64,000 nt of DNA from a virus, in the IMG/VR virus record IMGVR_UViG_3300027917_001949, positions 32,001 to 96,000 of that record. One strand, given 5' to 3'. The notes below the pieces were generated by a model, which searched no databases, was not told the DNA's origin, and was given only the letters and a program-made list of their open reading frames with translations. The position numbers and the translations under genes are program-made. Below, one piece after another: positions 3,737 through 60,497 of the stretch (the stretch's first letter is position 1; the number at the start of each line of letters is the position of its first letter).

Positions 3737-6040
3737 ATGTCAGAAAGAGTTCTATATGCTGCAAGTGCCGATACTGACTTGAAGAAACTGCATGCCGTAT
3801 ATTCATTGGTTAATGAGATACTTAAAAATAGAAACGACGTAGCTGCTACGGCAAAGACCGACGTAGAACGTTATATGCATACCGGTAAGTTCTACAATTA
3901 CAATAAGAAAGCTACGAAAAATCTCAAGCAGTTACTGTATGAACAGAATACACTTAAAGACAAAATTATTGCGGCTAACTACTCTGATGAGGAGTGGAAA
4001 GAACTTAGCGTAGATGAACAGTTGGTCATCGAGCGTAATCTTTTTGGTGACAAATTAGTGGAGAGAGAAAAACCAACGACATCAACATCACCGTTACTCG
4101 ACAACGTTCGCTCACTTAAACTAGACGGGATGGATGAGGTTGAGTTGGTTGACCCTACTGAGAATCTGTTACAGTATATCGAAGTTGATACTGGTGGTGA
4201 TTTCTCTATAACTGCTAACCAAATAACTGTCAGTACGATGGACAAAAACTATAAGGCGTACGTCTATAAGGATTTTGGTCCTGGGTTCTTTAATGGTGAT
4301 TTTTATCACAAATTTATATTTAACATGACTGCTTCATCTGGTTCGTATGTAGAGCTACCGTTGTGGGGAATGAAGAATATAATTGGTGACATGTCTGATT
4401 TAAGAAGTCAAAGTGAGAACGGTTACACCTTTGAGACTGATTGGAATATCCCTGTCGCTATTAATCAATTAAGACTTTACAGAACTAGTTCAGGTTCTGA
4501 GAGTGCTGATTCGTACACCACTGCTCAACCACTAAATACTGAATATTATGTCGAAATTGAGCGTGATGAAAGTATCGGTACTTATGGAGCTATTTATTGT
4601 TACTTCTGTAGAGATGACTACTACTCAGAAGGTGGTACACCGGATGACACTCTAAGCAGAAGTGAAGTTGCTAAAATAGATTTTCGTTATTTCTATGTCG
4701 CCCAAACTAACTATTACAACCAAACAGCGAGAGATGCAAGCGGATACGGCAATTCGTATGACTTGGGTTGGACTGCCCCTGCTCCTAATTCGTTTTCCGT
4801 GAGACCGGCTGGTACAGAATGTCAGTATCGTATGAGTATTCCATTACGTAAAACAACTGTTAATACTGGTTATCCTACTTTATTTACAGTTTTAAAGTCA
4901 GGTGCTCCAAGTTCACAACAAGCCATATGTCTTGCAGAAGTAGAAGATGACTTCAGAGATATTGTGTTTGCCAAAGGTGACGGTACAACAATTGTTCCAC
5001 ATTGGAAGGATTTGGGGTATTACTCGGAGGGGGAGTACGTTGATGTGTGGGTTAACCTACATAAAGCCGGTCATTCTTCATTGACTAGTGATTCAGGAAC
5101 TGGCACAGTTATTGTTTCTGATGGTAGCAAGTTTGAAGAAGGTGACTACATTGTTGTGGCAGATGATACTAACCCACAAGGTGAGGTGGTTCGTATCATT
5201 GGTATCTCTACCAATACACTTACTGTAACCCCTAGTCTGTCTAACACGTATACTACAGCAGAGAATGCCGTCGCTAGCCACATGATTTACGTGTACTACG
5301 GTGACCCTGCTATGACTGACCAGTCAAATGGTGACGATACGTGGGAATTCTTTGATGACTTCGAAGATGGTACGACTGATAAGTGGTCAGTTTATAATAC
5401 AGAGTATGGTTCGTTTGACGTTGATGCGGCATACGCTAAAGCCGGTAATTACGGTTTGAGGATATACGATACTAGTACTGGTGGTACACCGTATATGCGT
5501 GCACTTGGAATGGCAGCAGAAGGAAAACGAGTTAAGTTCTGGCATAAACCAATGCACGAAACTAATGAAAACTATCTGTTCTGGTACAACTCGCTTGACG
5601 GTGACCGTTGTTATCTGTTTCAATATTTTGGTCAGTATGCTTACTATACTACGGGTGTAAACTATTTGTATAATTATACCGCTGGTAATTGGTATCATAT
5701 TGAGATATTAGCTAGGTCAGGTAATGCAACGTGGCAATTTTTTATGAACAAAATCCAGTACGGTGGCACAATCGCTATGTATGCTGGAAGCTCAAGTAGT
5801 GACTACCTACACTTTGGTTACAACACTACCCAGACAAATTATTATGATTATTATGATTCGGTTTGTATTGGTAAGTTTGATTACGGTGACGAACCTTATG
5901 CTGGAGTGTACGGGTACGAGCAGTCATATGTACCAAGCGGGGCAGCAAATAAGATTAATCGTATTTCAGTGACTAGTATAAAGAAAATGAGTAAAGTCAA
6001 TAGAGCAAACATCTTGAAATTTAACAAAATAAGCGTCTAA
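3737..6040 (+). CDS. DUF2341-like virion/adhesin protein, paralog of the preceding gene
   Basis: DFRDIVFAKGDGTTIVPHWK..VWVN..YVYYGDP..SNGDDTWEFFDDFEDG. Confidence 0.6.
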   Translation: MSERVLYAASADTDLKKLHAVYSLVNEILKNRNDVAATAKTDVERYMHTGKFYNYNKKATKNLKQLLYEQNTLKDKIIAANYSDEEWKELSVDEQLVIERNLFGDKLVEREKPTTSTSPLLDNVRSLKLDGMDEVELVDPTENLLQYIEVDTGGDFSITANQITVSTMDKNYKAYVYKDFGPGFFNGDFYHKFIFNMTASSGSYVELPLWGMKNIIGDMSDLRSQSENGYTFETDWNIPVAINQLRLYRTSSGSESADSYTTAQPLNTEYYVEIERDESIGTYGAIYCYFCRDDYYSEGGTPDDTLSRSEVAKIDFRYFYVAQTNYYNQTARDASGYGNSYDLGWTAPAPNSFSVRPAGTECQYRMSIPLRKTTVNTGYPTLFTVLKSGAPSSQQAICLAEVEDDFRDIVFAKGDGTTIVPHWKDLGYYSEGEYVDVWVNLHKAGHSSLTSDSGTGTVIVSDGSKFEEGDYIVVADDTNPQGEVVRIIGISTNTLTVTPSLSNTYTTAENAVASHMIYVYYGDPAMTDQSNGDDTWEFFDDFEDGTTDKWSVYNTEYGSFDVDAAYAKAGNYGLRIYDTSTGGTPYMRALGMAAEGKRVKFWHKPMHETNENYLFWYNSLDGDRCYLFQYFGQYAYYTTGVNYLYNYTAGNWYHIEILARSGNATWQFFMNKIQYGGTIAMYAGSSSSDYLHFGYNTTQTNYYDYYDSVCIGKFDYGDEPYAGVYGYEQSYVPSGAANKINRISVTSIKKMSKVNRANILKFNKISV

Positions 6041-30678: not shown

Positions 30679-30780
30679 GCAGGGGATAGTTTAACGGTAA
30701 AATAGCTGTAAAGTTGAAAGAGTTGACTTTATTATCCTAGATAAGGAGTAGCTGTCGGTTCGAGTCCGACTTCCCTGCCA
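30679..30780 (+). ncRNA. tRNA-like RNA with anticodon arm replaced by a branched domain
   Basis: gcagggga/ttccctgc; D arm; gtcgg-ttcgagt-ccgac; agctg/tagct stem enclosing two hairpins. Confidence 0.6.
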
Positions 30781-30860: not shown

Positions 30861-30862
30861 AT

Positions 30863-30919
30863 GGGCTAGTGAGTTAATGGTAACGGTGCACAATATGGGT
30901 CCGATTCCCATCTAGTCCA
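30863..30919 (+). ncRNA. 57-nt tRNA-like RNA lacking the anticodon arm
   Basis: gggctag/ctagtcc; D arm gtt-aatggt-aac; T arm atggg-tccgatt-cccat. Confidence 0.55.
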
Positions 30920-30953: not shown

Positions 30954-31015
30954 AATAGGCATAAGCAGTTCCTATTTTTACAGAAATGTCTTTTGTGTTT
31001 TACTGCTCGCCGATT
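30954..31015 (+). ncRNA. Small RNA motif, copy 1
   Basis: ggc-ata-agcagt-tcctat...t-actgct-c-gcc; two further copies at 59353 and 59415 on -. Confidence 0.6.
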
Positions 31016-31018
31016 AAT

Positions 31019-31092
31019 GGGGCTATAGTCTAATGGCAGGACACTACCCCCTCAAGGTAGCATTGTCGGTTCGAATCCGTCTAGCCCTACCA
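31019..31092 (+). tRNA. tRNA-Glu(CTC), C33
   Basis: ctacc-cc CTC aa-ggtag; CCA. Confidence 0.85.
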
Positions 31093-31430: not shown

Positions 31431-31673
31431 ATGCCGAACACTCGCTACTTGAAACTAATTTGTGTATCCTGTCACAAGCGTAAGAAGGATTGTACATGTC
31501 ACTCTCATTACGCAAAGTATCATGGTGCAAAATATGGGTATACGTGGTGTGTTGATGTTGGTGTTGGCGCATATTGTGATGAATGCGTAAATAGGTTTTA
31601 TTGTTTTACTCATCGAGGATGGTTTGGGACAGATTTACCAGACTATAAATCGTATTACGGAGTATTGAATTAG
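31431..31673 (+). CDS. Small protein with CxxCxxRFxC motif
   Basis: CDECVNRFYCFT. Confidence 0.6.
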   Translation: MPNTRYLKLICVSCHKRKKDCTCHSHYAKYHGAKYGYTWCVDVGVGAYCDECVNRFYCFTHRGWFGTDLPDYKSYYGVLN

Positions 31674-31768
31674 GGAGCGTAGCACAATTTGGCAGTGCAG
31701 CAGTCTTATAAGCTGTTTAGGGTCTGATACACCCGAGGTTACAGGTTCGAGTCCTGTCGCTCCTACCA
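31673..31768 (+). tRNA. tRNA with TAT (Ile) anticodon and a 24-nt variable region
   Basis: gggagcg/cgctcct; gcagt-ct TAT aa-gctgt; gggt/accc variable stem; A73-CCA. Confidence 0.75.
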
Positions 31769-35256: not shown

Positions 35257-35487
35257 ATGAGGAATCCAGATAGAATACCTTTAATATTGGAAACCATATA
35301 TGAGATATGGATAGAAAACCCAGATTTAAGGTTGATGCAACTTTTAGGTAATTGTTTTTCTCCGGCAGATAATTACCACCGTGAGGATGACGTATTACTT
35401 GAACGATTGCGACAAGTATATGGTAAGTCGAGTGAACGCTCTACGAGAGAGGAAAGTCCGAACACCGCAGAGCAGGATGCAGGGTAA
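35257..35487 (+). CDS. DUF1040/YihD-like small protein
   Basis: MRNPDRIPLIL..W..NPDLRLMQLL; 3' end overlaps the RNase P RNA. Confidence 0.65.
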   Translation: MRNPDRIPLILETIYEIWIENPDLRLMQLLGNCFSPADNYHREDDVLLERLRQVYGKSSERSTREESPNTAEQDAG

Positions 35488-35820
35488 CACCCTGGCAGAG
35501 TAATCTGACGACTAGTGCAACAGAGACGAGTCAGTAGTTCGAGGTATGGGGTATTGGTAGCTCATATCCCTGTGGAATAGTATGGTTGTTTCTCTATATA
35601 GACACGTCATCGTACTGTGGAGGATGGCTACTTTCAGTAGGACTTACTGGGTGAAACGGGTAAACTCCATCCGGTGCAACCCCAAGCAGAAAGCAAATCG
35701 GCGATTCCGTTTAAGACCTGCTCGGTCAAGCTTTCGGGTCGGGGGCAAGGAGTTTAATGGTAACATTAAACCAAGATAAATGTTCACATAGTACAGAATT
35801 CGGCTTATAGATTTACCATA
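35420..35820 (+). ncRNA. rnpB: RNase P RNA
   Basis: GAGGAAAGTCC, AGTGCAACAGA, GTGAAAC, GGTAAACTCC..GCAA, ACAGAATTCGGCTTA in the correct order; P1 atatggtaagtc/gatttaccatat. Confidence 0.9.
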
Positions 35821-35824
35821 TTAA

Positions 35825-40082: not shown

Positions 40083-40160
40083 TGCCGAGTAGTCTAAAAC
40101 GGTTTGGACGACTGGCTTTGACCCAGTAGGCTGAAGGTTCGACTCCTTCCTCGGCAACCA
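40083..40160 (+). tRNA. tRNA-Gln(TTG)
   Basis: actgg-ct TTG ac-ccagt; U1-A72; CCA. Confidence 0.9.
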
Positions 40161-41286: not shown

Positions 41287-41547
41287 TCATTCAGCATTGT
41301 CTTCCTTCTCTTCGTCTAACCCAAAATACCGCACATTCCATGCTCGTTCCTGTGCCATCAACAGTTTGACACCGGTTTCAGTTTTTGCTAATTTAATGTT
41401 TCCTCTCAAGGCAAGGAGTCTATCGAGAGCCATGTCAACATAACCCTCGATAAACTCATCTTTCAACTTATCCAACTCGTTCACGTAGATACTCCCTCGC
41501 TTTCGCAAATGCACCTTGTCTGTCGTCTTTATCCAGCTTGCCATCAA
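41287..41547 (-). CDS. Hypothetical protein
   Basis: Overlaps 3' end of the CCA-adding enzyme gene. Confidence 0.45.
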   Translation of the reverse strand: MMASWIKTTDKVHLRKRGSIYVNELDKLKDEFIEGYVDMALDRLLALRGNIKLAKTETGVKLLMAQERAWNVRYFGLDEEKEDNAE

Positions 41548-42826
41548 TCACGAGGTTGGTCAGGTAGTTCTTTATATTACCAACAACTTCTCCAGGTTTT
41601 AGACCAAACTCTTTCATGATTTCGTTACCATCAATTGGAGAGGTCATGGTGTCTGGTTGTTCCGCTAGGCATTCGGTAACCATTCTGGTAAGAACGTTCA
41701 TGAATTTGTAACGTGGATTCTTTGATGAACGGATGTCACATTTTACTAAGTCCATCAGTAGTCCAATGTTGTTCTCACCAACCTTGCGAACCAGACGCAT
41801 GATGATTCTCTTTTTGATTTTACCACGTACCACTTCTTTTTGAAGTACGATAGGAGTCATGTGGTACTTAATCAGATGACATACACTGTTGATGACCTCG
41901 TTGTTAAAGCGAAGTCTACGCAGTATCTTTCTTGCCTTTCGTGCACCAACGTTGTGGTGTGAGTAGAAGTGGACACCATCATCGTCCTCGACCTTAGTTT
42001 CCGGTTTACCAATATCGTGTAAGATACAGGCAAGACGGAATATCAGGTTTCGGTTACCGTGGTCAACTTTAGTACCTTTGTATAGGACAAGTAGTGAGTG
42101 CTCGTAGGCATCCTTAATGTGGTTCTTTCCCTGTTGGATGTTACGCAGTTGCATAAATTCTGGTGAGATGTAGTCCATCAGACCAGTTTGGCACAGCTTT
42201 CTCCAACCGAAAGAAGCTCTACGTGATAGCAGGATTCGACTTACCTCGTCACGTACTCTTTCTCTAGAGATAACTTGCAGTCGTTCTGGATGTTGAATAG
42301 TGACGTCGAACTTGAAGTTCAGTTCGCAGGCAAAACGGACTGCACGAAGCATTCGTAGAGGGTCTTCGTCGAATCTGTCTTCACTACCTACAACTCTGAT
42401 ACGTTTGGCATTGAGGTCTTCAACACCACCAAATGGGTCGATAATTGCACCAGTCAGCGGGTTGCGTGCCAGAGCGTTGATGGTGAAGTCTCTACGAGCT
42501 AGGTCGTTCTCAAGTGAGTAACCGAACATGACAGTTGGTTTACGTGAGTTTGAACGGTATACTTCGCTTCTGTAAGTAGTTATCTCAACGGTATGACCGT
42601 TGGCATTGAGACCTATAGTACCAAATTCCTCACCCATAGTGTATAGAGAACCGAAGTCATTTATGATTTCTTTTATCTCGTCAGGGCGGGCATTAGTAGC
42701 TAGGTCAATGTCATGTGATTCTCTACCAAGTAGTGAGTCACGCACACGACCACCGACTTCGAAAAGTTCAAAACCTTTCTCGTTGAACTTCACTGCTATT
42801 CTGTTGATTAGAGTTTCCTCGTTCAT
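41468..42826 (-). CDS. cca: CCA-adding tRNA nucleotidyltransferase with HD domain
   Basis: VGGRVRD, DIDLAT, DLARRDFTINA, EDPLRMLRAVRF, LHDIGKP. Confidence 0.9.
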   Translation of the reverse strand: MNEETLINRIAVKFNEKGFELFEVGGRVRDSLLGRESHDIDLATNARPDEIKEIINDFGSLYTMGEEFGTIGLNANGHTVEITTYRSEVYRSNSRKPTVMFGYSLENDLARRDFTINALARNPLTGAIIDPFGGVEDLNAKRIRVVGSEDRFDEDPLRMLRAVRFACELNFKFDVTIQHPERLQVISRERVRDEVSRILLSRRASFGWRKLCQTGLMDYISPEFMQLRNIQQGKNHIKDAYEHSLLVLYKGTKVDHGNRNLIFRLACILHDIGKPETKVEDDDGVHFYSHHNVGARKARKILRRLRFNNEVINSVCHLIKYHMTPIVLQKEVVRGKIKKRIIMRLVRKVGENNIGLLMDLVKCDIRSSKNPRYKFMNVLTRMVTECLAEQPDTMTSPIDGNEIMKEFGLKPGEVVGNIKNYLTNLVIDGKLDKDDRQGAFAKAREYLRERVG

Positions 42827-47731: not shown

Positions 47732-48217
47732 TTATCCAAACGCTACTTTACCTTTTTCTTCTGCTGTTGTTTTACCTCGGTACGTTCCCTTCTCGTCGAT
47801 TAGAATACCGTCAAGATGGTCTACCTCATGTTCAACCACACTTGTTTCATGGACATCACGACACCTGAACTTTAGTGGTCTACCGTGAATGTCTTCACCG
47901 TACAGGGTAAGTCGTTGTGGTCGCTTAACTTCATATACTTTGTTACCTAAGCTCAGGCAACTTTCATGTACTTTAATCGAACCTTTTCGATGTTTGATAT
48001 GCGGGTTAATAATAGTATGCTCTCTGCCACGCAGCATTACAGTGATAATTCGCAACAACTCACCTACTTGTGGCGCAGCAAGACCGACACCATTATGCTC
48101 TTGACGTACTCGTGACATTTCCTCTGCTACCTCACGAGCATGTTCCATAGCTTCTTCCTCTTCTTCGACAGGAAGAGCTTTTTGTCGTAGAGTTGGGTCT
48201 GGGTCTTTTATTAACAT
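47732..48217 (-). CDS. def: Peptide deformylase
   Basis: DPTLR, GVGLAAPQVG, ESCLS, HEVDHLDGIL; RBS ggagg. Confidence 0.9.
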   Translation of the reverse strand: MLIKDPDPTLRQKALPVEEEEEAMEHAREVAEEMSRVRQEHNGVGLAAPQVGELLRIITVMLRGREHTIINPHIKHRKGSIKVHESCLSLGNKVYEVKRPQRLTLYGEDIHGRPLKFRCRDVHETSVVEHEVDHLDGILIDEKGTYRGKTTAEEKGKVAFG

Positions 48218-48370
48218 TATTCCTCCCTCACTAGGTCTACAGTTTCTTCCAATACCCACCGCAAGGTTTCAATTTCTCGGTGAATACCGGATGCCTCGAT
48301 GAGTGATGCATACTTTAACATCTCAGTTAGATTTCGAATTCTTGCTCGAATTTCCTCTTCTGTTTTCATC

Positions 48371-56148: not shown

Positions 56149-56697
56149 TCATAGATGACCTCGTTCTAAAAATTCTTTCCTGCTGATTCGTTCTATGCTT
56201 GGTTGTTTCAAGTGATATTTAACCATAACGTCATCAACACCATACATCTCCATCCATAACCCATAATTTTGAGCAATAACCATTTTATGATTACCACCTT
56301 TCCAGAAGACATGCTGGTGTCCGTAGTTTATCGTGGCTAAGAATGGTATCCTGTTTTCGAGCAACCATGTAATCACCTCACCCTGATTACACATTATGTA
56401 ATATCCGTAATTAAGTTCAAACTTAAAATACTGGTCTACCTCAATAATAAAATCATCCTCATCAACTCTTGGTTCTGGTGGTATATTACTCTTATAGTCT
56501 GCGTCTCGACGAATTCCAAGTTCTAATTCACTCGGTGAGTCGTGATTAATGGCAAAGAAACCGTAGTCCTTGAGTAGCTTGATTTGCTTGTCCGACAAAC
56601 GTGGTTTTATGCCATGAATTTCATCTAGGATTAACCTGTGCCGAACTACAAAACTACTAGAACTACTGTTACTGACGAAACCGTGCCTGATTTTCAT
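56149..56697 (-). CDS. FVSNSSS-leader protein 7
   Basis: MKIRHGFVSNSSSSSF. Confidence 0.75.
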   Translation of the reverse strand: MKIRHGFVSNSSSSSFVVRHRLILDEIHGIKPRLSDKQIKLLKDYGFFAINHDSPSELELGIRRDADYKSNIPPEPRVDEDDFIIEVDQYFKFELNYGYYIMCNQGEVITWLLENRIPFLATINYGHQHVFWKGGNHKMVIAQNYGLWMEMYGVDDVMVKYHLKQPSIERISRKEFLERGHL

Positions 56698-57203
56698 TGC
56701 CATTCCTCGTGGTACATGTTACGACACCACCTACCATCACGCATTTCAGCTTCAACATCACCTGAGCAACCCTCACCATAGTCACCGATACGGAAGCAAT
56801 AAACGACTTTCCCAGGAAAATTTACCAGGAGTCTTTCGGCTCTCTCGATACACTTTTCCATGTATTCGCTATCCCATTCCCACTCATAATCCCACTTGTA
56901 GGCATCTGCTTCGGTTTCGTCATCGTAACGCCAACCACCTGTACGTATCAGTCTGGCTAATTCACTCCTTTTTCCATTGCCGGTGAAGCACTTAAACCTT
57001 TCTTTGCACGAGTCGCACTCTGGTTGCGGTGGGTTGCAAAGTAATATTCCTTTCTGTCGTTTCATCCACGTAAGTAATAACTCAGCTTCTTCAAGACTTG
57101 CACCTTTGGACATAAGTTCAATAGGCAGAGTCGGTCTCTTATCCAATACGATAAGAAAACTAGCCGAACTGCTATTACTTACGAAACCACTACGAATTTT
57201 CAT
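56694..57203 (-). CDS. FVSNSSS-leader protein 8, also carrying the CxxCxxRFxC motif
   Basis: MKIRSGFVSNSSSASF and CNPPQPECDSCKERFKCFT. Confidence 0.75.
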   Translation of the reverse strand: MKIRSGFVSNSSSASFLIVLDKRPTLPIELMSKGASLEEAELLLTWMKRQKGILLCNPPQPECDSCKERFKCFTGNGKRSELARLIRTGGWRYDDETEADAYKWDYEWEWDSEYMEKCIERAERLLVNFPGKVVYCFRIGDYGEGCSGDVEAEMRDGRWCRNMYHEEWQ

Positions 57204-57405
57204 GCTTTATCCATTGACTTGTCCAGCATGTGAATCTAAACTCACACCCACCACAAGCTTCGTTCTTCTCCATCCACGTTGCACTATTTTCACTTGCTTT
57301 AAATGTCACCGCTCGACATCTGTCCATGTATGACTGCATTGTATATGAATTTTCAGTGCCGAACGGTGACAATAATACATTGATATATCTAGTCTTACGT
57401 GTCAT
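57190..57405 (-). CDS. Small protein with CxxCxxRFxC motif
   Basis: CGGCEFRFTCWT. Confidence 0.6.
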   Translation of the reverse strand: MTRKTRYINVLLSPFGTENSYTMQSYMDRCRAVTFKASENSATWMEKNEACGGCEFRFTCWTSQWIKHENS

Positions 57406-59261
57406 CGCAATAGACTTATAAACGTATCCTTTTCAATGGTCTCAGGAGACAGGTCAATGTCGGCATCATCTGGTGAATCAACCATTTCCGCACCTGCATC
57501 AGATAGAACCTCAGCTAGGTCAATCGGATTCTTGTAGTAGTTGATTAACCACTGCCTGCTATGCTCTGAATAGTCATTTGAGCGTGACGTTATTGACCTA
57601 CCAAGATTTGTCTCGGCAAAGTAGAATCTCGTCATCTCAGAACCAGTAACCAATAACCCCAACATTTTTTGTTTGTCGGTTTGCGTAGAGTTTGTGATAA
57701 CCTCGACGTTATTAGGGTCAACGGTACGCTTGTTCCATAATCTTTCCTTGTTTGATGCTACTAATATCTTGAATGGTACAGGAACGCTCGCATTGTAATT
57801 GAAGTAGTTCAAGTACATTAGATACGCTTTTTCCTCTTTCTGCTTCTTCACGTAGTACAACTCTGTCGCACCATTACGTGCATCAGTAAGGTCACCTGAG
57901 AATAGAACCCTATCCTCGTAACGGTATGAGGCATCCCATCCAAATTTCGTGTTCAGTTCAACTAACGAAAGGTCAAGGTCGATTCTGTGACCATCGACAT
58001 TCTTCCAGTAGACACCGGCAACCATGTTCGTTGGTAACTCTACATAACTTCCAGATGGTAAGTTACCAGTAAACTGCTTCTCTGTAGCAGGAAGAGCATA
58101 GTGTATGGTATCAGGTATGTATACTTTCTTACCCTCTACATTACCTGCTATATCCTCAACGATTGAATACATCACATCATCAAGAACTGATGTAACTTCG
58201 TCCTGCTTAATAAAGCTGAATGACTTCGCATAACCACGCCCATTACGTATCCTATAAAGGATTGATGGTGACTCGCTCAACCTGAACTTAAGAGCATATG
58301 CAAGTCTAATCTTTCTGAATACATTTACGTCATTAATTGCATTAGCAAATGTTTCGTGGTCAAATGTACCCTGAGCTATCTTTGCTGTAACAAGATTAAG
58401 GTAGTCCTCCGGTAGTGGTGTGTGATGTTTAGGGGCAAGACGACGTACCTTGTTAACCAATGTCTTTAGTCTCTGATTAGTTCTGAATGCTAAGAACAGC
58501 GGTTTGAACCTGTAGAATATCTTTGCCAATTCCTGTAATCCATACTGCTTCTCGTAATCGGTGAATATTTTGGTTACATGAAGATTGTCTGTTGATTTGA
58601 TTTCCTGTATTACAGCACGGCTCTTGATTAGAAGAGTCTTACCGGTTGCCTTGTAGATGGCATAACGTAATAGCTCAGTCGGATTCTTTGGAATTAGACC
58701 GGCATATTCATATAGCATTATTTTGACTTCTTTATTCTTCACCTTTTCGAAGTCAGTGAAGTCAACAAACAGAGCAACCTCTACCACCGCTTTGATGGTG
58801 TCGGTATGTAATGCAATACCAGATTCAAGCATTGCTATCAGCTTCTCAGTTAGTTCCTCTTTCGTATACCCCTTGATGACAGTCAGCTTTATTTTATCCA
58901 ACTTCACCTTGGGAACGTTTAGAGCTTCATCCGGTATATACACATAGTCGCTGTCAATACCAAAAGCTTCGAAACCATAGGTAGTAAAGTAGTGCATGAT
59001 TTGCTCAATAACAAGTTGCTCGATACTGGCATCACGAACTTTTGCCCAGGATTTGTGGAAGGTGCTGTTCATTTGCTCGCCAGAAAGACCAACGGTCTTG
59101 GTGACCAGTTCGACTAACTCGTTATAGTTGGTATAATTAGCAATAACCTCCGGTGCAAAAACGAATCCGAGTGGTATCGTTCGTTTCATCAATGCTTCAT
59201 CGGTCTTTGTCTCCCTCTTGTTTATAGGTAATGCTCTGAATAATTTAATTGTTGCTTCCAT
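57402..59261 (-). CDS. Large helical (ROT/TROVE-like) protein with C-terminal TerD-like domain
   Basis: STFHKSW..EQIMHYFTTYG; C-terminal GVYW..RIDLDLS..GW..FSGDLTDA..GATE. Confidence 0.55.
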   Translation of the reverse strand: MEATIKLFRALPINKRETKTDEALMKRTIPLGFVFAPEVIANYTNYNELVELVTKTVGLSGEQMNSTFHKSWAKVRDASIEQLVIEQIMHYFTTYGFEAFGIDSDYVYIPDEALNVPKVKLDKIKLTVIKGYTKEELTEKLIAMLESGIALHTDTIKAVVEVALFVDFTDFEKVKNKEVKIMLYEYAGLIPKNPTELLRYAIYKATGKTLLIKSRAVIQEIKSTDNLHVTKIFTDYEKQYGLQELAKIFYRFKPLFLAFRTNQRLKTLVNKVRRLAPKHHTPLPEDYLNLVTAKIAQGTFDHETFANAINDVNVFRKIRLAYALKFRLSESPSILYRIRNGRGYAKSFSFIKQDEVTSVLDDVMYSIVEDIAGNVEGKKVYIPDTIHYALPATEKQFTGNLPSGSYVELPTNMVAGVYWKNVDGHRIDLDLSLVELNTKFGWDASYRYEDRVLFSGDLTDARNGATELYYVKKQKEEKAYLMYLNYFNYNASVPVPFKILVASNKERLWNKRTVDPNNVEVITNSTQTDKQKMLGLLVTGSEMTRFYFAETNLGRSITSRSNDYSEHSRQWLINYYKNPIDLAEVLSDAGAEMVDSPDDADIDLSPETIEKDTFISLLR

Positions 59262-59352
59262 TCTTCTCCCTCTGCCGGAAAGGGTGGTCATATTCACGGT
59301 ATTTCCGATTGTGGAACTAATCCACTCAGCCTGACCACCCTTCCGAACTAAT

Positions 59353-59406
59353 GCGGCGAGCAGTATAAAAATGCAAAGTTTATTTTATAGGAACTGCTTC
59401 TGCCGT
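59353..59406 (-). ncRNA. Small RNA motif, copy 2
   Basis: On -: cggc-aga-agcagt-tcctat...t-actgct-c-gccg. Confidence 0.6.
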
Positions 59407-59414
59407 TATTTACC

Positions 59415-59496
59415 TGAGCGAGTAGTAAATATCGCACAGCCATCCCACCCGTAGGTAGGTAGGCTGTAAGTCAGAAATAGGAACTACTTATGCTCA
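59415..59496 (-). ncRNA. Small RNA motif, copy 3
   Basis: On -: tgagc-ata-agtagt-tcctat...t-actact-c-gctca with an inserted hairpin. Confidence 0.6.
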
Positions 59497-60497
59497 TATT
59501 CCAAACTGAGATTATACACTGGACAACTTCTACAATTACTTAATACTCGTGTACGGAACATCTTTGTTTCCTCAGCATTCCACACATCTCGTACAAAATC
59601 CTCACATCCCAGTACATCCACACCGGAGAACTCGGGTTCACCCTCAGAAAAACTGCATGGGTATCCTATTCCATCGACATTAATGTAGTAGGAAAACAGT
59701 GTACTCTCACACGGTTCGGACATTGTTTTGTATAGTTCGTAATTCTTATCGTCCTTAACAGCTTCCAAGAAATTGTTAGCCGTACAACTATCGAATCCGA
59801 ACTTACCACCGACCTTGACCGCAAGGTCTATCAACTCTTTGAATTTCTCCATAGAGTCCAGTTGTTTTAGAGTATTCCTTTCCCCTTTCGGTTTTAACCA
59901 CAAGAACACTACAGCGTTTAATTTCGCTAGACGGGGGTCTGCAATCCGGTCACGCAGCACGTTGCAGCATTTTTCATAGGTTAGTTTTGAAAGGAGACAG
60001 TGTATGTTAACCTGTTCCATGCCTTTGTCTGTTAAATTCTTAACAGCATTGTAACAGGTATCCTTGTCGTAGAGACTGACGGCGACTGCACCGCAGGTTT
60101 TCACCAGTCGGTCATACCGCTCGTCAGTCATCCGTTCACCGTTTATGGTGACATTGGGGATAACGTTGTTATCACGACAGTAATCCATTATCTTCCACAT
60201 ATCGGGATTGCCGTCAATGTCCCCGATTCCGAAAGCAATTTGTGTGAGGTGTTTGGGGAATTTATCGAACATTGTCTTAAATGTTTCAAATTCCATGTAG
60301 TCACCGTACTTAATGTTAGATTTGTAACACCATAGACATTGTCTACTACATACAGTGCTAATTTCTATGTCCATTATCTCCGGTCCAAATGGCGACCAAT
60401 CAGGGTCATCATCTTCAGTCTTACCCCAACGAGCAAAGAACCCGTTAGTTGTGTTGAATACAAAATTATAATCCGGTGATTTGAATTCTTTAAACAA
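59484..60497 (-). CDS. Radical SAM enzyme with C-terminal Twitch/SPASM-like extension
   Basis: CSRQCLWCY (CxxxCxxC); PCES..YYINVDG..YPCSF..CRSCP. Confidence 0.9.
   Translation of the reverse strand: MFKEFKSPDYNFVFNTTNGFFARWGKTEDDDPDWSPFGPEIMDIEISTVCSRQCLWCYKSNIKYGDYMEFETFKTMFDKFPKHLTQIAFGIGDIDGNPDMWKIMDYCRDNNVIPNVTINGERMTDERYDRLVKTCGAVAVSLYDKDTCYNAVKNLTDKGMEQVNIHCLLSKLTYEKCCNVLRDRIADPRLAKLNAVVFLWLKPKGERNTLKQLDSMEKFKELIDLAVKVGGKFGFDSCTANNFLEAVKDDKNYELYKTMSEPCESTLFSYYINVDGIGYPCSFSEGEPEFSGVDVLGCEDFVRDVWNAEETKMFRTRVLSNCRSCPVYNLSLEYEHK

Follow-up and report, generated by a model that had tools for sequence, protein, structure and literature searches.

Small structured RNAs of a large and so far undescribed family form, with the gene of an adjacent protein, a conserved and exclusive genomic pair in phages, bacteria and archaeal MAGs. 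We consider it fairly probable that these RNAs, here called handle RNAs, and their 619-residue cognate protein make up a ribonucleoprotein (RNP) that works like Ro60 with its Y RNAs, without detectable homology to Ro60, and the module probably acts in the repair of tRNA or other RNA. The pairing couples a very large protein family that lacks a Pfam, PHROG or PADLOC assignment to an RNA that lacks an Rfam family.

Structure of the handle RNAs

The window, the 64,000-nt stretch of phage DNA that was analysed, holds three handle RNA copies, two on the minus strand and one on the plus strand (Table 1), where a reading of the sequence alone had placed three copies of a motif. The 12-mer AGYAGTTCCTAT occurs exactly three times, with about 0.7 occurrences expected even when one mismatch is tolerated. 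Our covariance model, R1, was seeded with 51 units, namely units 2 and 3 of the window and 49 units from other phages. In the whole 152,753-bp phage genome, R1 matches the three window units alone.

Table 1. Features of the window. R1 matches of units 2 and 3, which belong to the seed, are partly by construction; the independent match is that of unit 1.
Feature	Position	Strand	Details
Handle RNA unit 1	59413..59498	-	R1 34.2 bits, E 1.5e-6; MFE -32.4 kcal/mol, z -5.07
Handle RNA unit 2, minimal form	59351..59408	-	R1 53.1 bits, E 1.5e-11; fold z -3.0
Handle RNA unit 3, minimal form, in tRNA array	30954..31015	+	R1 48.7 bits, E 2.2e-10
Long hairpin, ~15-bp stem	59276..59346	-	fold -33.1 kcal/mol, z -3.37
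Partner protein gene, 619 aa from ATG 59261 (start most likely)	57402..59261	-	ORF open from GTG 59297
N-terminal helical-repeat domain, residues ~13-390 (631-residue numbering)	58128..59261	-	secondary structure
C-terminal TerD-fold beta domain, residues 421-587	57537..58037	-	VIA, Foldseek

The handle consists of a helix P1, a 3-nt A-N-A bulge opposite a single C, a 6-bp helix P2 closed by invariant G-C and U-A pairs, and an unpaired UCCUAU (consensus GGC-AUA-RRNNGU-UCCUAU, with GGC-A(U/A/C)A-RR as its 5' part). About 14 of its nucleotides are invariant, and many of these are unpaired. The sequence-only reading had drawn the 3x1 loop and the UCCUAU as we find them, and had made P1 too short at 3 bp, its length usually being 4-6 bp. 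In unit 1, P1 is UGAGC/GCUCA, the bulge is AUA opposite C, and P2 (AGUAGU/ACUACU) is followed by UCCUAU; a G+C-rich hairpin of 42 nt makes up the variable region, and the upstream radical-SAM gene terminates within the 5' end of the unit (stop codon 59484-59486). Unit 2 combines P1 CGGC/GCCG, a bulge AGA opposite C and P2 AGCAGU/ACUGCU, again followed by UCCUAU. Its handle is nearly identical to that of unit 3, and the variable regions of the two are unrelated. The 3' end of unit 3 lies 3 nt ahead of a tRNA-Glu gene (31019-31092), 26 kb from the partner gene.

The compensatory changes first noticed among the window's copies (AGCAGU/ACUGCU versus AGUAGU/ACUACU, and GGC/GCC versus AGC/GCU) are real and generalise to 150 distinct units. 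Across these units, 94.9% of cells are paired, as against 73.9% after shuffling, and the covariation score is 0.658, as against 0.234 for shuffled alignments and at most 0.20 when the partners are slid. Both sides have changed in 10 of the 12 pairs, and P2 is 100% paired across the 150 sequences, 4-6 pair types occurring where its positions vary. The pair between columns 4 and 66, which played no role in the choice of the seed, is formed in 50 of 51 sequences and by five pair types. Readings of the handle as a K-turn, a T-loop or an archaeal bulge-helix-bulge were rejected by eye, the post-bulge residues being Watson-Crick paired and the loop sequence unfit. Pairing of UCCUAU with an AUAGG made up of bulge and P2 was also rejected, since UCCUAU stays constant where bulge and P2 read AUAAG.

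At gathering scores, Rfam models match only tRNAs and RNase P in the window, and at E <= 10 the locus yields only chance-level matches, none of them to a ribozyme family. A megablast search of 50,697 phage records with the locus as query gave no match. Scans for promoters and terminators around the units found nothing above shuffled expectation. Units 1 and 2 of the window lack promoters and terminators of their own, and unit 1 overlaps the upstream coding sequence; both are therefore probably parts of an mRNA, which leaves room for a role in cis. A long hairpin separates unit 2 from the ribosome-binding site. It does not belong to the handle units and lacks a U tract, and the closest relative has no space for a counterpart.

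What the handle carries differs widely. Most units, including all three of the window by fold analysis, have no tRNA body, and some relatives bear one in either of two circularly permuted forms, in both of which the handle takes the place of the anticodon loop. In type A the handle lies outside, with a T arm, a capped acceptor stem and a D arm inside, and the units fold as predicted; this T-AS-D order is the one described for YrlA (PMC4201824). Type A units of the loci L045, L054, L028, L036 and L051 score 34.9-49.5 bits (E 4e-8 to 6e-4) against the Rfam YrlA model RF02553, all below its gathering threshold of 69 bits; the window units have no match to it. Type B is the circular permutation, with tRNA ends and the handle on the anticodon stem. 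Its example in locus L097, a 113-nt RNA at 5797-5909, scores 60 bits against the Rfam tRNA model. A decoding function for either type was rejected, as the junction by the anticodon stem holds no consistent 7-nt anticodon loop. These chimeras pinpoint the constant, presumably protein-binding, part of the RNA.

A partner gene that tracks the RNAs

Two handle units stand in tandem upstream of a gene for a protein of about 620 residues, as the sequence-only reading had observed. It had begun that gene at GTG 59297; the most likely start is ATG 59261, which agrees with the database protein P0001 and with the starts of homologues, and AGGGAG precedes the start. Among 8,000 candidates scored, about 1,940 are relatives of the protein at E <= 0.001, and the family comprises 1,468 representatives of 50%-identity clusters. 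The protein itself belongs to no Pfam, PHROG or PADLOC family, and a Pfam search with it and 37 homologues gave no match even at E <= 10. Its AF2 model (pLDDT 85, pTM 0.85) has two domains. The N-terminal helical-repeat domain contains many invariant Lys and Arg residues, for example in the block FRKIRLAYALK.R, and Foldseek with this domain alone found nothing. The C-terminal domain has the TerD fold that had been proposed for it, with VIA Z scores of 10.2 to 2qz7_B (144 aligned) and 9.3 to 2kxt and a Foldseek probability of 1.0 against the TerD structures 2kxt, 3ibz and 2qng. In the ESM Atlas, the nearest cluster with any common Pfam family has TerD on 22% of its members (feature score 0.89). 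NCBIfam NF041916 matches residues 412-510 weakly, at 17 bits (E 0.0013) relative to a cut-off of 600 bits, and a PDB profile search returned chance chromodomain matches only. Botulinum and tetanus neurotoxin chains, which top the Foldseek list for the whole model, were treated as spurious (TM 0.06-0.12, rmsd ~33 Å).

The suggestion that this protein is related to TROVE/Ro60 found no support. Beyond the lack of a Pfam family, a six-frame search of the phage genome with the TROVE HMM gave no match while its controls were positive, and hhalign of the family alignment against a nine-sequence Ro60 alignment returned a probability of 0.4%. The vWA_Ro60 model does not match the partner protein, and does match the true Ro60 of locus L107. 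Structural scores of the whole model against Ro60-type chains, whose fold is a HEAT-repeat ring, lie at the level of the helical-repeat background: Z 6.5 at rmsd 5.4 over 260 aligned residues for 1yvp_A, Z 6.0 over 243 for 9l5y_B and Z 6.0 over 70 for 2nvo_A. The N-terminal domain alone scores Z 5.4 to 1yvp_A over 230 residues, again within that background.

The RNAs follow the gene into related phages and into cellular genomes. Homologous genes had been named as the place to look for the motif, and R1 finds it there, with 214 matches (E <= 0.01) over 80 related phage loci. Among 41 loci of bacteria and archaea, where protein identity falls to 32-35%, 72 matches (E <= 1) are spread over 40. 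All matches, phage and cellular, are on the strand of the partner gene and nearly all stand shortly before it, most of those in phages no more than 600 nt upstream. Upstream arrays end 5-90 nt from the start codon, and tandem arrays comprise 2-7 units with different stems. When whole genomes were searched (six phage records and four bacterial genomes), R1 matched solely beside the partner gene, with one exception, unit 3 in the tRNA array of the window's phage. On the gene's own strand, no protein neighbour is common to more than 9 of 81 phage loci, an antisense ORF inside the partner gene in 14 of the 81 having been discounted; the RNA array and the gene therefore constitute a two-part module. 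The radical-SAM neighbour was rejected as a functional partner because it is not conserved. In Ro60 systems a cognate small RNA lies within about 4 kb of the partner gene and on its strand, and the handle RNAs, so placed, are candidate cognates. The proposal that they are cognate RNAs of this protein in an uncharacterised RNP is thus borne out as far as the exclusive genomic pairing goes; physical binding, and release of the RNAs as discrete molecules, we infer.

Nearly all units stand directly upstream of the gene's start codon on the same strand, and the window units lack a flanking promoter or terminator. Both observations would fit cis-acting mRNA leaders, through which the protein or another factor controls the translation or stability of its own message and no free RNA is made. 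Precedent exists in the tRNA-like operators of tRNA-binding proteins, such as the thrS operator bound by ThrRS, and ribosomal protein leaders likewise regulate their own message. We nevertheless regard leaders as unlikely. Four phage loci (L004, L005, L039 and L076) have units downstream of the gene; L097 has one right behind RtcB and before another gene, and in L015 the distance is 1.4 kb. Unit 3 retains a fully conserved handle in a tRNA array 26 kb off; the sequence-only reading had already taken this copy to favour a trans-acting RNA over a cis leader, and together with the downstream units elsewhere it argues against a pure 5' leader. Moreover, the tRNA ends of type B would be cut by RNase P and RNase Z, and a single operator would leave the 2-7 tandem copies, with their different stems, unexplained. 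The downstream units, the L097 unit, the distant unit 3 and the constancy of handles whose variable regions differ all favour an independent RNA. The leader reading is compatible with protein binding, so that the two explanations overlap in part.

RNA-repair context and a possible mechanism

The module keeps company with enzymes of RNA repair. Of 80 cellular loci, 37 have RtcB as the immediate upstream neighbour on the same strand, and 28 have RlaP downstream. Cultured Chryseobacterium strains possess the module, and in Chryseobacterium and a Desulfobacterales genome the gene order is RtcB, RNAs, partner protein. Locus L097 extends this to Band-7, RtcA, RtcB, an RNA unit, a treble-clef protein, further RNA units, the partner protein, a HEAT-repeat protein and a 3'-5' exonuclease. 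Many phages carry the module within their tRNA array, and the window's phage also encodes RtcB, a CCA-adding enzyme, RNase P RNA and more than 33 tRNAs; RtcB is missing from two of five other large phage records, one of them rated 100% complete. Some genomes with the module also have a canonical Ro60, at a distance of 2 kb in L107 and at another place of the genome in G006, so that the module is not simply a replacement for Ro60.

In the RNP that we favour, the basic helical-repeat domain would grip the handle, the putative protein-binding constant part, and the variable end of the RNA would be absent or would consist of a hairpin or a full tRNA-like body. It is possible that this end shows a tRNA mimic to tRNA-handling enzymes such as RtcB, RNase P, the CCA-adding enzyme and exonucleases, or that it vies with tRNAs for these enzymes. 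The TerD domain may act as a sensor of Ca2+ or of a small ligand. In bacteria the module would serve Rtc-type RNA repair; in large phages it would ride with the tRNA array and might help to keep phage or host tRNAs usable during infection.

A tRNA-like body with the handle in place of the anticodon loop, as in types A and B, could also be a tRNA-shaped decoy or sponge that draws off anticodon nucleases of the host or other defences directed at tRNAs, the protein being a chaperone or sensor instead of a repair scaffold. The embedding of the module in phage tRNA arrays would suit such a role, and these arrays are generally thought to counter tRNA-targeting defences. We hold decoys to be quite improbable, as the tRNA body is missing from most units, all three of the window among them, nothing like an anticodon recurs consistently at the junction by the anticodon stem, and the module also occurs in chromosomal Rtc operons of free-living bacteria. 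It is more improbable still, to the point of being far-fetched, that the handle is a self-processing or nuclease-recognition element that punctuates polycistronic tRNA or mRNA transcripts and is linked to the gene by position only: the invariant nucleotides, of which many are unpaired, would agree with this, as would the circular permutation and tandem arrays that are typical of small self-cleaving ribozymes such as twister, but no Rfam ribozyme matches even at E <= 10, and such an element would neither track one protein family exclusively through phages, bacteria and archaeal MAGs nor be absent elsewhere in ten genomes.

If the RNP reading is true, Rtc RNA-repair operons gain a second kind of RNA-protein cofactor besides Ro60/Y RNA, a recurrent unannotated gene in the tRNA arrays of large phages is accounted for, and the design of a tRNA mimic on a protein-binding stem has evolved, or been re-used, with an unrelated protein. 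It is tempting to go a tentative step further: the module could be a second, independently evolved lineage of Ro/Y-type RNPs, in which a protein of helical repeats and a TerD domain binds bare handles as well as both circular permutations of the tRNA-handle chimera. It would extend over well over a thousand lineages of phages and prokaryotes and serve RtcB-type tRNA repair as a scaffold or gate. Such a lineage would fill a gap among the cofactor classes of bacterial RNA repair and add a new element to the biology of phage tRNA arrays.

Comparison with known systems

The C-terminus of the partner protein shares the beta-sandwich fold of the TerD family (PF02342; 2kxt, 2qz7 and 3ibz; Z 9.3-10.2), and acidic motifs of the TerD-like types DLDLS and SGD..TDA..GA.E stand at invariant columns of its alignment. 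It differs from that family in having no Pfam match, in being fused to a helical domain of about 400 residues, and in its context of RNA and tRNA genes rather than a ter operon. With the MXAN_6230/SCO0854 family (NF041916; Prok-RING_4) the likeness is one of structure, the ESM Atlas aligning 602 of the 619 partner residues at a TM of 0.75 by query. Those proteins have about 840-990 residues and an N-terminal RING, whereas Pfam detects no RING in the partner protein; the common core is visible by structure only.

Among tRNA-like RNAs, b7a-tRNA is a band-7-associated RNA of RtcB operons (Burroughs and Aravind 2016, as described in bioRxiv 10.1101/312249). As that citing description presents it, the type B RNA of L097 would be a candidate for the same kind, standing in an operon with Band-7, RtcA and RtcB. 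Relative to b7a-tRNA so described, the L097 RNA bears a handle for an anticodon loop and has minimal handle units on its flanks, and handle RNAs track a TerD-domain protein in all loci, Band-7 being annotated in L097, the sole locus screened for it.

The main likeness is to Ro60 and its RNAs, and the analogy with Y RNAs that the sequence-only reading had drawn stands for RNA architecture (type A units reach 35-50 bits with YrlA) and for the RtcB context, and finds no support in protein homology. As with YrlA and YrlB in the rsr-yrlBA-rtcBA operon, the RNA genes lie a few hundred nucleotides from the protein gene on the same strand, and RtcB and RtcA adjoin the module in some loci. Y RNAs too are modular, with a stem formed by the 5' and 3' ends and a conserved motif of the 5' strand by a 3-nt bulge. 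The tRNA-like domain of YrlA is ordered T arm, capped acceptor, D arm, as in type A handle RNAs, and YrlB is a shorter paralogue without that domain, like the minimal handle units. The handle is similar in layout to the Ro60-binding motif GNCGAAN0-1G (PMC4201824) and differs from it in sequence. Both proteins place a helical-repeat domain before a domain of cation-binding type, which is vWA/MIDAS in Ro60 and the TerD fold in the partner protein. Distinct from Ro60/Y RNA, finally, handle units form tandem arrays of 2-7 and a permuted form with tRNA ends, and canonical Ro60 can share a genome with the handle module.

The handle RNAs and their partner gene

The three RNA copies proposed in the sequence-only reading all lie where it placed them, and folding supports the proposed structure for each. 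Two stems, P1 and a 6-bp P2 that ends in G-C and U-A, are separated by an internal loop in which three nucleotides (AUA or AGA) bulge opposite one C. Unpaired UCCUAU follows P2 and leads into the variable region, after which a U precedes the returning 3' strands of P2 and then P1; we call the constant part of a unit the handle. A covariance model, R1, built from 51 units (units 2 and 3 of the window, the remainder from other phages) matched only the three window units, both in the window (E = 1.5e-11, 2.2e-10 and 1.5e-6, units 2 and 3 matching partly by construction) and in the whole 152,753-bp genome. When 150 distinct units were aligned to the model, and the alignment thus fitted to it, 94.9% of cells were paired versus 73.9% after shuffling, and the covariation score was 0.658 versus 0.234 for shuffled and at most 0.20 for slid partners. 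P2 was paired in all 150 sequences, and its four variable positions showed four to six kinds of base pair. Because this alignment is fitted to the model, we separately checked a pair outside the seed selection (column 4 with 66) and found five pair types there, with pairing in 50 of the 51 sequences. In the orthologous units of the closest relative (L002), P2 is unchanged and P1 has changed from AGC/GCU to GAC/GUC.

We collected 80 phage and 80 bacterial or archaeal loci around homologues of the partner gene. The phage loci contained 214 R1 matches at E <= 0.01, all on the gene's strand, mostly within 600 nt upstream of it and in arrays of one to seven. The motif occupied the same upstream position in 40 of 41 cellular loci tested, at protein identities down to 32-35%; these genomes span cultured Chryseobacterium, Pirellulaceae, Desulfobacterales, cyanobacteria, Erysipelotrichaceae and archaeal MAGs. 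Many of them are MAGs, in which phage contigs may be present. When five other large phage records and four bacterial genomes (5-7.5 Mb; the best 150 first-look candidates per bacterial genome scored) were searched in full, the motif was found beside the gene only. Clustering of all ORFs from the phage loci revealed no conserved protein neighbour: the most widespread one in the gene's orientation occurred in at most 9 of 81 loci, and an antisense ORF lying within the gene, common to 14 loci, was discounted. The adjacent radical SAM/SPASM gene is accordingly an incidental neighbour, and what is inherited together is the gene and its RNA array. Recoding of homologues was considered and rejected: translating the homologue in a fixed frame from position 4001 (about 4001-5170) gave stops in L004, L018, L025, L028 and L052, but in four of these loci the match starts elsewhere than at 4001, and the stops are therefore offsets. 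In L004 there is one TAA, at codon 4 and ahead of the true start.

Forms of the RNA

The majority of units, including all three in the window, are of a minimal form, a handle with a short loop or hairpin. In type A units (examined from L045, L051, L054, L023 and L028) the variable region consists of a permuted tRNA body that runs from the anticodon-stem 3' strand through the variable loop, T arm, loop-closed acceptor stem and D arm to the anticodon-stem 5' strand. This is the topology described for YrlA (PMC4201824; 10.1101/312249). Type A units scored 34.9-49.5 bits (E 4e-8 to 6e-4) against the Rfam YrlA model, below its gathering score of 69 bits; L036 is counted as type A by its YrlA match. 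Type B units (L015, L022, L037, L067, L071/L072 and bacterial L097) are a circular permutation of the type A two-dimensional shape, with normal tRNA ends, the handle on the anticodon stem, and P1 closed by a loop. A further variant, in L067, has the handle flanking an unpermuted tRNA-like sequence. What stays constant across these forms is thus the handle, the tRNA body being an optional addition. Part of these results, in particular the type B tRNA-like RNA, may already have been described as b7a-tRNA.

The putative partner protein

Pfam, PHROG, PADLOC and NCBIfam gave no assignment for the 619-aa protein, which nevertheless belongs to a very large family: of 8,000 candidates scored, about 1,940 reached E <= 0.001, and the family has 1,468 representatives at 50% identity. 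In an AF2 model (pLDDT 85, pTM 0.85) helical repeats extend to about residue 390, and residues 421-587 form a beta domain in which structure search confirmed the suspected TerD fold (Z 10.2 and 9.3; Foldseek probability 1.0). The accompanying TROVE assignment was not supported: sequence profiles show no TROVE relationship (hhalign profiles shallow, Neff 2-3), and on that basis the protein is not classed here as a Ro60. Among 48,161 chains, three Ro60 structures matched the helical part at Z of only 6.0-6.5, two with unusually long alignments (243-260 residues); the helical domain modelled alone gave Z 5.4 against Ro60, and Foldseek with that domain alone found nothing. In the ESM Atlas almost the entire protein aligns to the RING-bearing MXAN_6230/SCO0854 family (TM 0.75), a likeness backed by a weak NCBIfam match. 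Invariant basic residues of the helical domain would fit nucleic-acid binding.

Genomic setting and interpretation

The source record is an uncultured phage with a completeness rating of 99%. The window holds 32 tRNAs called by ARAGORN and three more by Rfam, together with a class A RNase P RNA, a CCA-adding enzyme and a peptide deformylase (see table); an RNase P RNA encoded by a phage is unusual. None of the inserts in the long tRNAs carries the handle. RtcB occurs here and in three of the five other phages examined for it. In one relative it is divided between two ORFs and in another a short match holds two stops (see table), which could mean that the gene is split, interrupted by an intein or intron, or decaying.

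Features of the phage and related records (window positions unless a record is named)
Feature	Position	Strand	Remarks
tRNA	30680-30778	+	99 nt; ~28-nt insert in anticodon region; Rfam call, missed by ARAGORN
tRNA-like element	30862-30919	+	7-bp acceptor stem, short D arm, T arm, no anticodon arm; between tRNA-Lys(ctt) and unit 3; called by neither tRNA finder
Handle unit 3	30954-31015	+	
tRNA-Ile(tat)	31673-31768		96 nt
Class A RNase P RNA, full-length	35420-35823	+	196 bits, model positions 1-367; in tRNA array, directly before tRNA-His
tRNA	40083-40157		Rfam only
CCA-adding enzyme with HD domain	41468-42826	-	
Peptide deformylase	47732-48259	-	
Two proteins downstream of partner gene	56149-57203	-	common 25-residue N-terminal match to phrog_7397
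Partner gene	57402-59261	-	619 aa from ATG
Handle unit 2	59351-59408	-	
Handle unit 1	59413-59498	-	
Radical SAM/SPASM gene	59484-60497	-	just upstream of handle RNAs; not conserved beside module elsewhere
RtcB ligase	G000:C1:116357-117418	-	outside window; E 3.4e-68
RtcB, related phage	G001:C1:16690-17744	-	two adjacent ORFs
RtcB, another related phage	G003:C1:111237-111488	+	short match, two TAA stops
tmRNA	L027 395-826	+	71.5 bits; 207-kb phage record, near its tRNA array and module
Canonical Ro60	L107 9681-11330	-	TROVE + vWA_Ro60; Bythopirellula

Many phages (L023, L004, L018, L027, L057, L028) carry the gene and its RNAs within or bordering a tRNA array, on the same strand; here about 20 kb separates the gene from the array, but unit 3 still lies within the array and ends 3 nt short of tRNA-Glu. 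Of the 80 cellular loci, 37 have RtcB directly upstream in the same orientation, with a divergent WYL/WCX regulator and, in 28 loci, RlaP downstream.

The exclusive pairing of RNA and gene across deep divergence is best explained by a ribonucleoprotein in which the protein binds the handle, a reading that we consider fairly probable on comparative and predictive grounds; the optional YrlA-like module and the Rtc context also favour it. The window units appear co-transcribed with flanking genes, as would be expected of a purely cis-acting leader, but that explanation is improbable given that some units lie downstream of the gene, that one follows RtcB, and that unit 3 of this phage is far from the gene. 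Readings of the RNAs as decoys or as ribozymes are less likely.

The proposed ribonucleoprotein invites comparison with Ro60. Canonical Ro60 co-occurs with the module (gene plus handle RNAs) in one genome (G006), and in Bythopirellula it is about 2 kb from, and convergent with, the TerD-domain gene, a PcfJ-like gene lying between them; the module is therefore not a simple Ro60 substitute. In L097 the order is Band-7, RtcA, RtcB, RNA unit, treble-clef protein, RNA units, gene, HEAT-repeat protein and 3'-5' exonuclease; the module there occupies the position of rsr and yrlBA in the Salmonella rsr-yrlBA-rtcBA operon (10.1101/312249). Handle RNAs may carry or lack a tRNA body, much as YrlA differs from YrlB.
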